Origin: an uncultured Thermoanaerobaculia bacterium
GTDB lineage: Bacteria > Acidobacteriota > JBCCFW01
DNA: 64,000 nucleotides
Direction of reading: 5' to 3'
Assembly (NCBI GenBank): GCA_964613915.1
Contig: CAZTIW010000001.1
Coordinates: 123,741 to 187,740 of the forward strand
The position numbers and the translations under genes are program-made. This document shows, piece after piece, positions 7,721 to 12,639 of the stretch. How positions within the stretch are numbered: position 1 is the stretch's first letter; each line of letters begins with the position of its first letter. The notes beneath the pieces were generated by a model. That model had not been told where the DNA came from. It saw only the letters and a list, made by a program, of their open reading frames with translations, and made no database searches.

Positions 7721-9631
7721 ATGTCCACCGCTCCCGCCCGCTTGCTCCACCCCATGATTCGCGAGAACGGCGTCCTCCGCCAGGCCACCTGGGACGAGGC
7801 GCTCGACCGCGCGGCCGAGCTCATCCAGTCTTCCGTCCGCCAGCGCGGGCCGAAGTCGTTCGGCATCTTCTCGTGCAGCAAGGCGACGAACGAGATGAAC
7901 TACATGGCGATGAAGTTCATCCGGACGGCCGTCGGCTCGAACAACATCGACTCCTGCAACCGCACTTGACACGCCCCCTCGGTCGTCGGTCTGGCGACTG
8001 TTTTCGGAGCGGGTGGCGGGACGAGTTCGTACGAGGAAGCCGAGAACACGGATCTCATCTTCCTCTGGGGTAGCAACGCGCGCGAGACGCATCCCATCTT
8101 CTTCCATCACGTGCTGAAGGGCATCCGCAACGGCGCGAAGCTCATGGTGGTCGACCCGCGGCGGACGAGCTCGGCTCGCTGGGCTGACCAGTGGCTGGGC
8201 CTGAACGTCGGCACGGACATCGAGCTCGCGAACGCCATGGGCAAGGTCATCCTCGACGAGGGACTGGAGAACCGCGAGTTCATCCGGCGCGCGACGGTGG
8301 ATTTCGAGGCCTACCGCGCGCTCGTCGCTCGCCATGACCTCGAGCGCGCCGAGCGCGTGACGGGCGTGCCGGGCGACGTCATCAAGCGCGCGGCCATCGA
8401 GTACGCCCGCGCCGACCGCGCGATGATCTGCTGGACGCTCGGCATCACCGAGCACCACAACGCGGTGGACAACGTCGTGTCGCTCATCAACCTCGGGCTC
8501 CTGACCGGCCACGTCGGGCGCTACGGCAGCGGGCTCAACCCCCTGCGCGGGCAGAACAACGTGCAGGGCGGCGGCGACATGGGCGCCCTGCCCCACAAGC
8601 TCACGGGCTTCCAGGACATTGACGACGACGCGCTGCGCGGCAAGTTCGAACGCGCCTGGGGCGTGACGTTCTCGGGCGAGGTCGGCTGGCACCTGACCGA
8701 GATGTTCGAGGCGATGGAGCGCGGCGACATGACCGCGCTGTTCTGCATCGGCGAGAACCCCGCGCAGTCGGAGGCCGACTCGCACCACTGCCACGGGCTG
8801 CTGTCGGGACTCGAGTGCCTGATCGTGCAGGACATCGTCATGACCAGGACGGCCGAGATGGCCCACGTCGTCTTCCCGGCATCGGCGTCGTGGTGCGAGG
8901 CTGACGGCACGGTCACGAATTCCGAGCGCCGCGTGCAGCGCGTGCGCAAGATCCTCGAACCGCCAGGCGAAGCTCGCGACGACATCCAGATCCTGGCCGA
9001 CCTCGCGCGACGCCTCGGCCGCGACCTCGGCAACCCGACGCCGCGGCAGCTCTGGGACGAGCTGCGCACGCTCTCGCCCATGCACGCGGGCATGAGCTAC
9101 GAGCGCCTCGAGAAGCTCGGCGGCATCCAGTGGCCCTGCCCGTCCGAAGACCACCCCGGCGAGAAGTTCCTTCACGCGCGGCTCTGGAAGGACCCCATCG
9201 AGGGCCGCCGTGCCCCCTTCCTGCCCTGCGAGCAGGTGCCGCCCGTGGACCAGCTCACCGAGGACTTCCCGCTGCGGCTCACGACCGGGCGGCGGCTCGA
9301 TTCCTACAACACGGGCGTGCAGACCTCGAGCTTCGCGTCGCCCATGCGCGGCGGCGAGACGCTGGACCTGTCGCCCGAGGACGCGCGCCGGCTGGCCATC
9401 ATGGACGGCGAGATGGTGCGCGTGACCTCGCGACGCGGCTCCGTGCTGGTGCCCGCGCGCATTGACACGGGCCTGAAGCCCGGGCTCACCTTCATGACGT
9501 TCCACTTCCCCGACCAGGTGGACACCAACATCCTCACCATTGACGCGACCGACCCCAAGTCGGGCACGGCCGAGTTCAAGGCCTCGGCGATTCGCGTCGA
9601 GAAGCTCGCGGTGGACGCCGTCGCGACCTGA
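7721..9631 (+). CDS. fdhA: Formate dehydrogenase catalytic (molybdopterin/MopB) fragment, a selenoprotein with in-frame TGA at 7967-7969 read as Sec; it lacks the N-terminal 4Fe-4S domain
   Basis: Two six-frame ORFs (7568..7969 and 8111..9631) share one frame and are separated only by TGA. The context SCNRT-TGA-HAPSVVGL matches the FdhF Sec site (CARV-U-HGPSVAGL). The translation is collinear with E. coli FdhF from residue ~63 (PMIR...ATWDEAL) to the C-terminus (GQNNVQGGGDMGALP, KSGTAEFKASAIRVEKL). A GGAGA RBS sits 7 nt before the ATG at 7721. Confidence 0.85.
7982..7998 (+). promoter_or_regulatory. SECIS-like hairpin, 12 nt downstream of the Sec UGA (GUCGUC-GGUC-U-GGCGAC: 6-bp stem, GGUC loop, bulged U)
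   Basis: The sequence after the TGA (CACGCCCCCUCGGUCGUCGGUCUGGCGAC) parallels E. coli fdhF (CACGGCCCAUCGGUUGCAGGUCUGCACC), including the apical GGUC loop and bulged U. Confidence 0.5.
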
Positions 9632-9712
9632 CGCGCCGGCGCGTCGCCCGGGGGCGCGCGACCGCCGCGCGCTCCCGTCGCTCATGCCATCATCCGCACC
9701 GAAAGACCTGAC

Positions 9713-11530: not shown

Positions 11531-12639
11531 GCTCGCGATTCGTCGAGGCGCCGCGCCGCATGGTCGAGTTGAGCGTGGATGGCCACGCGGTCGCCGTGCC
11601 CGAGGGCTCGACCATCATGGACGCCTGCCGCGAGGTCGGCGTGGACACGCCGACCCTGTGCTGGGCGGCGAACCTGACGCCCATCAACGCCTGCCGCGTG
11701 TGCGTGGTCGAGCTCGAGGGCGCGCGCACGCTCGTGCCGTCCTGCGCGCGCAAGGCCGAGGCCGGCATGAAGGTGAAGAGCGACAGCGAGCGCGTGCGGA
11801 CCAGCCGCAAGCTCGTGCTCGAGCTTCTCGCCTCGTCCGTGGATGTCTCGACGGCGCCCGCCTTCCAGGGGTTCATGGAGCGCTACGGCGCCGACGCGAG
11901 CCGCTTCGGCGAGGCGCAGGCGCCCGCGGCCGCCGGCGAGCGCGACGCCGCGCATGCCGGACACCATCACGCGACCGACGGGTCGCGCGCCGCGACCGTG
12001 CATCAGCCGGTCAAGGTGGACAACGAGCTCTACGTCCGCGACTACGGCAAGTGCATCCTCTGCTACAAGTGCGTGGACGCTTGCGGCGAGGAAGCGCAGA
12101 ACACGTTCGCCATCGCGGTCGCGGGTCGCGGGTTCGACGCGCGCATCTCGACCGAGCTCAACGTCCCGCTGACCGACTCCGCCTGCGTTTACTGCGGCAA
12201 CTGCATCAACGTCTGCCCGACCGGCGCGCTGATGTTCAAGTCGGAGCACGACATGCGCGCGGCGGGCACCTGGGACGAGTCCAAGCAGACGACCGCCGAG
12301 ACGGTCTGCCCGTACTGCGGCGTGGGCTGCGTGCTGGAGCTGACGGCCCAGGACAACCGCATCGTCAAGGTCATGTCCCCCGTCGAGTCCACCGTGACGA
12401 ACGGGAACCTGTGCATCAAGGGACGCTTCGGCTTCGACTACGTTCACCATCCGCACAGGCTGACGAAGCCGCTGATCCGGCTGCCAAGTGCCAAAAAGCA
12501 CGCCAACGACCAGGTCCACCCGAAGCTGGTTGAATTGGGAATGCCCTTCAAGCCACTCTTCGGCTTCGAGCACGTGCAGCGCATGCCCGGCAAGAAGTCC
12601 CGCCGCCCCCCCAGCGACGGCGACGCACCCGTCGGCTGA
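11527..12639 (+). CDS. fdsA: Formate dehydrogenase alpha N-terminal FeS fragment (2Fe-2S ferredoxin fold, 4Fe-4S clusters and the MopB N-terminal 4Fe-4S domain), ending exactly at the MopB domain boundary and followed by a ~50-aa non-homologous lower-GC tail
   Basis: [51 protein letters not shown] is NuoG/FdsA-like. [11 protein letters not shown] and [12 protein letters not shown] are ferredoxin clusters. [15 protein letters not shown]...[27 protein letters not shown] matches FdhF residues 1-70. The tail [20 protein letters not shown]... has no homology and lower GC. Confidence 0.8.
   Translation: [370 protein letters not shown]

Follow-up and report, generated by a model that had tools for sequence, protein, structure and literature searches.

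A predicted NAD-linked selenocysteine formate dehydrogenase with its alpha subunit encoded as two polypeptides in a permuted operon

Related formate dehydrogenases and the present locus

The described enzymes nearest to the locus reported here are NAD-linked formate dehydrogenases (FDHs) of two kinds. In the tungsten enzyme FDH1 of Methylorubrum extorquens (Fdh1A/Fdh1B; PDB 7e5z, 7vw6), whose cofactor content is given in a 2026 review (PMC13397495), the beta subunit is a NuoE-NuoF fusion and the alpha subunit is one polypeptide of ~990 aa with a Cys ligand. This subunit carries a [2Fe-2S] cluster, ferredoxin-type [4Fe-4S] and the [4Fe-4S] cluster FS0, without the His/Cys3 cluster of NuoG. The FdsGBA(CD) enzymes of Rhodobacter capsulatus and Cupriavidus necator (PDB 6tg9/6tga) are soluble, NAD+-linked molybdenum (Mo) FDHs with a NuoE/F/G-like electron-transfer module. 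We analyzed a 64-kb stretch of DNA from an uncultured Thermoanaerobaculia bacterium (contig CAZTIW010000001.1; hereafter the window), in which positions 7721-12639 are occupied by three co-directional genes in the order MopB - NuoEF - FeS (Table 1). They encode a catalytic protein of the MopB fold, a NuoE-NuoF fusion, and an iron-sulfur (Fe-S) protein that corresponds to the N-terminal third of an unsplit alpha subunit. The locus probably specifies a cytoplasmic, NAD(H)-linked FDH of the Fdh1AB/FdsABG kind, with a selenocysteine (Sec)-ligated Mo/W-bis-pyranopterin site and with alpha made as two polypeptides across an entire bacterial clade; an insertion in the Fe-S gene of the window would derive from the linker of an unsplit Fdh1A-type gene.

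The window shares with the Fdh1 system a NuoEF fusion as the beta subunit and an Fe-S protein with the cluster set of the alpha N terminus, for which Fdh1A of M. extorquens is the best solved match. As in Fdh1-type loci, NuoEF lies immediately upstream of the coding region for the alpha N terminus. Alpha is two polypeptides with Sec in the window, in place of one with Cys, and the MopB part is encoded upstream of NuoEF, unlike the single alpha gene of M. extorquens, which lies downstream of it; the two alpha open reading frames (ORFs) are thus set apart by NuoEF. Moreover, the MopB protein is nearer in sequence to FdhF/FdhA-type enzymes than to Fdh1A, and identity between Fdh1-type loci and the window is only about 35-40%. 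Both alpha pieces also align to FdsA, whose N-terminal third, like that of Fdh1A, is matched by the Fe-S protein. The Fds system differs in that FdsG and FdsB are separate, FdsA is fused, is of the Cys type and has an extra NuoG-type cluster, FdsD is present, and the order is G-B-A. From these comparisons the enzyme of the window is predicted to work like the Fdh1AB and FdsABG enzymes, with formate:NAD+ activity.

Escherichia coli FdhH (FdhF) and the FdhF of the hydrogen-dependent CO2 reductase (PDB 1aa6, 7qv7) belong to the solved enzymes closest to the catalytic protein and have the Sec or Cys active-site motif in common with it. FdhF differs in having its own FS0 domain on the same chain and no NuoG-like N-terminal extension; in the window, the FS0 cysteines stand on the separate Fe-S protein. 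Two other systems show related kinds of subdivision. In HylABC-FdhF2-type complexes, NuoG-like Fe-S and NuoE/F-like subunits are apart from the catalytic MopB subunit, and FdhF keeps its own FS0, whereas here FS0 has left with the Fe-S subunit and the break falls between MopB domain I and the remainder. In formylmethanofuran dehydrogenase, a different enzyme with different partners, the MopB catalytic unit naturally occurs as two polypeptides, FwdB and FwdD, split at the C-terminal Molydop_binding domain and so at the opposite end of the fold from FS0.

The divided alpha subunit and its conservation

The catalytic protein contains PF00384 (4.8e-70) and PF01568 (4e-27) and no other domains. Its alignment to TIGR01591, a profile that in FdhF includes the FS0 cysteines, starts at residue 6 and covers profile positions 52-672, with a score of 670.2 bits against a cutoff of 666.25. 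Neither the ORF nor the in-frame sequence upstream of it has the FS0 Cys4 motif. This bears out an earlier first-pass annotation of the DNA, according to which the first gene starts at the MopB domain and lacks these cysteines. The catalytic family is marked by a Sec or Cys ligand with His next to it (U/C-H-x-P-S) and by a conserved Arg further downstream; the MopB protein of the window has both, in CNRT-U-HAPSV, with the in-frame TGA read as Sec, and in NPLRGQNNVQG. The NuoEF protein comprises PF01257, PF01512, SLBB and PF10589, that is, a 2Fe-2S thioredoxin-like domain, an FMN/NAD site, SLBB and a 4Fe-4S domain in a single chain, and an identical 605-aa product is present in the public protein collection. 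The first-pass annotation was also right in placing the missing Cys4 motif and ferredoxin-like domains downstream of this gene. Indeed, the Fe-S protein consists of Fer2_4 ([2Fe-2S]), Fer4_7 with two ferredoxin-type 4Fe-4S motifs, and Molybdop_Fe4S4 (FS0; CPYCGVGC...LCIKG), and a Pfam search gave no match in it to PF10588, the NuoG His/Cys3 cluster domain. Both translation signals that the first-pass annotation had pointed to are present: GGAGA ahead of the catalytic gene and, at the Fe-S gene, a start that overlaps the NuoEF stop as ATGA. The G+C content at third codon positions (GC3) is 0.92-0.93 for the catalytic and NuoEF genes (0.93 for the catalytic gene) and 0.954 for the Fe-S gene when the insertion described below is left out. 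A consensus scan of positions 7300-13100 for promoters and terminators gave no matches.

The Fe-S protein has a His-rich motif at window positions 11940-11975 (residues ~139-152), where NuoG and FdsA bear the His/Cys3 [4Fe-4S] cluster that the Fe-S protein lacks. Across the family, G145 and H147 of this conserved motif are invariant, and >=90% of sequences have H146 and H148; the motif could be a metal- or partner-binding site.

In homologues, the boundary between the two alpha pieces is sharp. Family Fe-S proteins cover positions 1-49/51 of TIGR01591 only and end 5-30 residues past KGRFGx (typically ...KGRFGFEFVQNR), with one outlier that has a 208-residue tail. Because these proteins stop at profile position 49/51 and the catalytic protein starts at 52, the fission in the family is clean on these alignments: the pieces abut at ~50/52, with no overlap. 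An in-silico join of the FS0 domain to the catalytic protein is near gap-free and colinear with FdhF of the hydrogen-dependent CO2 reductase and with archaeal FdhA. In the window itself, the Fe-S protein extends over profile positions 1-61, and both alpha pieces bear RLxxPxIR, as RLTKPLIR in the Fe-S protein and RLLHPMIR in the catalytic protein; positions 52-61 are therefore covered twice. The first-pass annotation had described this shared boundary segment correctly. It had also proposed aligning both fragments to profiles to define the overlap, which proves to be 52-61 in the window but nonexistent in the family (1-49/51 versus 52-672). The argument that the family's split had duplicated the junction is not supported, since the family Fe-S proteins end before this segment and the extra RLTKPLIR comes from a 132-nt insertion in the window. 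RLxxPxxR occurs in 0 of 120 Fe-S homologues; catalytic genes begin M-x(3-8)-RLxxPxxR in 8/8 loci.

Genomic context was examined for ten loci, eight of them with all three genes, in seven neighbourhoods (L001-L004, L005, L007, L008/L009, L010, L130 and L132). As had been advised at first pass, gene order was compared with that of related genomes, and it is the same throughout: MopB, then NuoEF (~600 aa), then Fe-S (~280-390 aa), with flanking genes that are unrelated. The source labels of the carrier metagenome-assembled genomes (MAGs) and records include Kofleriaceae, Byssovorax, Thermoanaerobaculia and Acidimicrobiia. The catalytic proteins of the other loci are 66-71% identical to that of the window. 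NuoEF and Fe-S genes overlap by 4 nt in most of these loci, with a gap instead in L132, and FdhD is encoded directly upstream in three (L005, L010 and L130).

A wider search for homologues gave the same picture. The best 120 Fe-S homologues are 298-392 aa long, apart from one of 510 aa, and 68-98% identical over the alignment; they have the same domains, and the Molybdopterin domain is absent from all of them. The cluster-binding cysteines are invariant across 121 Fe-S sequences. The best 120 matches to the 82-aa N-terminal piece of the catalytic protein, one of which is the window's own, are 78-113-aa products with PF00384 only, which share the start boundary and end at the Sec TGA. Neither set of 120 includes a fused close relative. 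Among representatives at 50% identity (mostly fragments), the split Fe-S proteins collapse into essentially one cluster, and those of the more distant 360-440-aa matches that were scanned derive from fused Sec-type alphas, of which they are the N-terminal part up to the TGA. Since the same split, order and TGA recur in seven other independent contexts and the best homologues are unfused, the alpha subunit is, on these comparisons, a conserved two-polypeptide subunit and not a product of decay. Of the options set out at first pass, a functional alpha in two polypeptides is thus favoured by a split, gene order, ATGA coupling, Sec codon and cluster cysteines that are conserved across assemblies and several phyla.

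The order itself can be related to that of unsplit systems. NuoEF lies upstream of the unsplit alpha gene in 101/101 informative Fdh1-type loci, so MopB - NuoEF - FeS is, as read from these loci, a cyclic permutation of the canonical NuoEF - alpha, with the adjacency of NuoEF to the alpha N terminus retained. This order would result from a tandem duplication whose outer parts were then lost, and equally from a move of the MopB part.

The catalytic frame has a sole interruption, a TGA that the first-pass annotation does not mention, at the position of the Sec/Cys metal ligand. TGA stands at the same codon in the catalytic genes of seven other loci, where MopB is called either as two pieces of ~80 aa and ~510-560 aa or, in the NCBI records for two homologues, as 652- and 662-aa products that read across it. 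A hairpin resembling a selenocysteine insertion sequence (SECIS) follows the codon; it is kept in 8/8 loci with an invariant loop, and 2/7 of its pairs (9 pairs are predicted overall) show compensatory changes of both bases, among them a double synonymous change in the Acidimicrobiia locus. Because the in-frame TGA lies in CNRT-U-HAPSV and the conserved hairpin is downstream of it, the catalytic subunit is a predicted selenoprotein. An Rfam scan of the window at gathering thresholds matched no family, in the SECIS region or elsewhere, and a tRNA scan of the 64 kb found no tRNA and hence no tRNA-Sec.

Some relatives have peculiarities of their own. P0276 (318 aa, ~40% identity) is a distant Fe-S protein that also ends right after Molybdop_Fe4S4, and it may represent a second, independent split family or merely a truncated gene call. 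P0002 (L005 5341-6519) has an internal tandem duplication of ~85 residues, ...ICPYCGV|DAQNTFAIGVAGRGF...ICPYCGVGC, so that the second ferredoxin motif and the beginning of the FS0 domain appear twice; the duplication could be real or an assembly artefact. In the Kofleriaceae locus (L008 1314-3980; L009 410-2959), the gene immediately before the catalytic one, and co-directional with it, encodes an 849-888-aa protein with Fer4 and Pyr_redox_2, which could be an extra or alternative electron-transfer partner. In the Acidimicrobiia locus, a flavodoxin gene (L132 6021-6446) comes after the Fe-S gene.

Table 1. Features of the formate dehydrogenase locus in window coordinates
Feature	Position	Strand	Remark
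Ribosome-binding site GGAGA	7710..7714	+	6 nt before the catalytic ATG; direct sequence reading
Catalytic MopB subunit of FDH, 636 codons including Sec	7721..9631	+	ATG at 7721, stop at 9629-9631
In-frame TGA, predicted Sec codon, CNRT-U-HAPSV	7967..7969	+	Position of the Sec/Cys metal ligand
SECIS-like hairpin, stem GUCGUC/GGCGAC, loop GGUCU	7981..7999	+	Begins 12 nt past the UGA
NuoE-NuoF fusion, Fdh1B-like NAD/FMN module, 605 aa	9713..11530	+	Pfam and NCBIfam
Fe-S subunit, N-terminal third of unsplit alpha	11527..12639	+	Pfam, TIGR01591
12-nt direct repeat CTTCGGCTTCGA, left copy	12426..12437	+	
132-nt (44-codon) in-frame insertion, source of RLTKPLIR	12438..12569	+	Absent from L006 and from 120/120 homologues
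12-nt direct repeat CTTCGGCTTCGA, right copy	12558..12569	+	

The 132-nt insertion in the Fe-S gene

The second copy of the junction peptide is accounted for by comparison with an assembly that is otherwise identical to the window at this place. Over the 1397 nt that precede the site and the 863 nt that follow it, L006 (Logan run SRR12901013) agrees with the window without a mismatch, and exactly 132 nt are missing from it; the protein it encodes, P0001, is the closest homologue of the Fe-S protein of the window and matches it residue for residue, the insert excepted. Past the insert, the native end of the Fe-S gene resumes. The duplicated junction peptide is therefore, on this comparison, an insertion in one genome and not a feature of the enzyme family, and as part of such an insertion it is no evidence for a tandem duplication. 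Whichever direction the change took relative to L006, the insert is derived when judged against the family.

Most of the insert resembles a known piece of unsplit enzymes. Homology to the FS0-to-MopB linker of unsplit Fdh1A-type alphas extends over its first ~33 codons, with a match to residues 333-366 of M. extorquens Fdh1A, and identity to Bradyrhizobium genes is 84-87% at the amino-acid level and, across the insert proper, at most about 82% at the nucleotide level. The 12-mer CTTCGGCTTCGA that brackets the insertion also occurs at the homologous position of many unsplit fdh1A genes, and could have served as the homology anchor for the join. GC3 of the insert is 35/44 by hand count, below the 0.954 of the rest of the Fe-S gene (binomial p about 1.5e-4), so the template was probably of lower GC and foreign. 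A scan of GTDB representative genomes with the degenerate peptide K[HD]ANDQV[HD]P gave at least 119 loci, almost all of them alphaproteobacterial unsplit genes. Among the matches listed, which do not include the window's own genome, there was no donor nearer than about 82% nucleotide identity. No sampled gene matches the 35 nt at the 3' end of the insert, no protein in a collection of 5.8 billion shares its 3' half, and no JGI metagenome contig encodes the 12- and 11-residue peptides sought as marks of the donor. A repeat or miniature inverted-repeat transposable element was rejected as the nature of the insert, there being no other copy longer than 14 nt in the window.

The insert and the tail after it are modelled with low confidence. 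AlphaFold2 modelled the 370-aa Fe-S protein with a mean predicted local distance difference test (pLDDT) score of 62.8, and residues 309-367 at 31-45. The model is in keeping with the insert being, most likely, a tolerated, disordered C-terminal extension past the last conserved structural residues; other family members tolerate C-terminal extensions of up to ~30 residues.

Directly downstream of the operon, window positions 12700-17250 have a GC content of 0.62-0.66, against ~0.70-0.75 around them, and no ORFs of high GC3; their first 800 nt recur in L006. Inspection of the translations by eye suggests two toxin-antitoxin pairs there, one RelE/ParE-like (14509-14790) with HTH-XRE (14795-15061), the other HicA-like (16708-16977) with HicB-like (16974-17189). 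Large genes elsewhere in the window, for an ankyrin-repeat/BRCT protein (18035-19765), an RCC1-repeat protein (32161-35574) and a PKD-domain protein (35880-40514), are unrelated to the operon and would fit a large genome of Myxococcota-like character.

Rival readings, proposed mechanism and significance

Several observations weigh against an active, split Sec enzyme whose insertion was copied from an unsplit gene. A single-sequence fold of the SECIS region, in a GC-rich context, has a z-score of -0.74, no better than shuffles, and the excess of synonymous-site conservation there is not significant (p=0.10); we grade the support for the SECIS element as moderate. Neither FdhD nor Sec machinery was found within the 64-kb window. 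The association of the alpha pieces and the specificity for NAD+ are inferred from homology only. As to the insert, its last 12 codons resemble the canonical ANPFTHF only loosely, the protein collection, the GTDB representative genomes (among the matches listed) and the JGI metagenomes hold no exact-sequence donor, and the difference from L006 reflects either a recent gain in the window or a precise repeat-mediated loss in L006. The insertion could also be a chimeric artefact of metagenome assembly or library construction, drawn from an abundant alphaproteobacterial-type fdh1A. The 370-aa product is indeed known from one NCBI contig only, an independent and 100% identical assembly is without the insert, its codon usage is unlike that of the host gene, its nearest relatives are Bradyrhizobium/Methylobacterium-type genes common in soils, and JGI metagenomes show no second occurrence. 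However, the insert shares reading frame and orientation with the gene and sits at the homologous codon position; after 120 nt the sequence returns to that of the host by way of a 12-nt repeat, a length that de Bruijn-graph assemblers could not bridge. Moreover, its best nucleotide identity to a sampled donor is ~82% and its 3' 35 nt are unmatched, so that it was not simply copied from some abundant genome in the same sample. Since so short a repeat would not mislead an assembler and no sampled gene is reproduced in the insert, an artefact is not favoured, and we regard it as unlikely. Another reading, that the doubled RLxxPxIR is a functional feature of the split enzyme, such as a strand contributed by both subunits that aids docking, fits the facts that both copies are in frame and that the segment is a conserved strand in unsplit enzymes. 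Yet none of the 120 Fe-S homologues has it, the family ends at TIGR01591 position 49-51, the otherwise 100% identical L006 is without it, and the modelled confidence over the insert is very low (pLDDT 31-45); this reading is highly improbable.

The whole locus might instead be the decaying remnant of a tandem operon duplication with deletions, its alpha pieces pseudogenes and the enzyme non-functional. A tandem duplication with two deletions of NuoEF-alpha does predict the gene order seen, the junction peptide is present twice in the window, and a stop codon interrupts the catalytic frame. The same split and order are nonetheless found in seven other independent contexts across several phyla, with catalytic proteins still 66-71% identical to that of the window, invariant cluster cysteines, coding-like GC3 and, in most loci, translational coupling; the interruption is a TGA, placed at the Sec codon and followed in every member by a conserved hairpin, and the junction duplication is specific to the window. 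We therefore find decay very unlikely. The duplication that the first-pass annotation had offered as its second option keeps its value as a reasonable account of the cyclic gene order, but the junction peptide lends it no evidence and the locus is no decaying remnant. It has even less to recommend it that the Fe-S gene is the 5' part of an alpha gene cut by the downstream low-GC island (~12.7-17.2 kb), with MopB from another copy of the operon. Homology to unsplit alpha does stop at ~12480 with the lower-GC toxin-antitoxin region next, but homologues in island-free loci end at the same point, followed by unrelated genes, and the native gene end returns after the 132-nt insert, which leaves this idea almost no probability. 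The interrupted-gene idea was also rejected on a tblastn search of the 64-kb window, which found no second MopB fragment.

We thus prefer the reading as a working FDH with alpha in two polypeptides. The expected complex is MopB(Sec) + Fe-S + NuoEF. By homology to solved unsplit enzymes, the MopB protein would oxidise formate at its Sec-ligated metal centre. The first acceptor of the electrons would be FS0, a [4Fe-4S] cluster that lies across a subunit interface, on the Fe-S protein; from there they would travel by way of this protein's two ferredoxin-type clusters to the NuoF-like [4Fe-4S], FMN and NAD+ of NuoEF. The Lys between FS0 and the pterin in the FdhH structure is, we take it, the K of CIKGRFG, which here would be carried by the Fe-S protein. 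NuoEF and the Fe-S gene remain adjacent, with translational coupling through ATGA. In this proposal, an unsplit Fdh1A-type gene, probably foreign, supplied the insert from its FS0-to-MopB linker, and the join was made via CTTCGGCTTCGA.

In all model enzymes of the 2026 review, FS0 and the pterin site are on one chain (PMC13397495). We found no description of a two-chain FS0/MopB architecture in the open-access full-text literature, although absence there is no proof. On a broader proposal our judgement is evenly balanced: that these loci form a widespread, apparently undescribed class of soluble Sec-FDH, in which FS0 and the pterin site are on different polypeptides, the first electron step crosses an interface, and the operon is cyclically permuted. 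In such a class the Sec-MopB module could be matured, exchanged or docked independently, and in this strain a lost piece of linker would have been copied back from an unsplit-type gene.

The 132-nt insertion is mainly a caution, in that the most remarkable-looking feature of the locus came from a single-genome oddity; if a piece of linker was indeed copied back in, recombination between split and unsplit FDH genes would be shown to be still going on. The operon would be a clean example of cyclic permutation at the operon level. Public annotations routinely break the catalytic gene at its TGA and give the Fe-S gene no more than the label "2Fe-2S cluster-binding protein" or "YjgC", and the enzyme is therefore easily missed in soil Myxococcota, Acidobacteriota and Actinomycetota. 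Metal-dependent FDHs are under intense study for CO2 reduction, and a natural separation of FS0 from MopB would show that this interface can be non-covalent, a ready-made modular design in which a Sec-MopB cartridge is combined with a NuoEFG-like NAD module.

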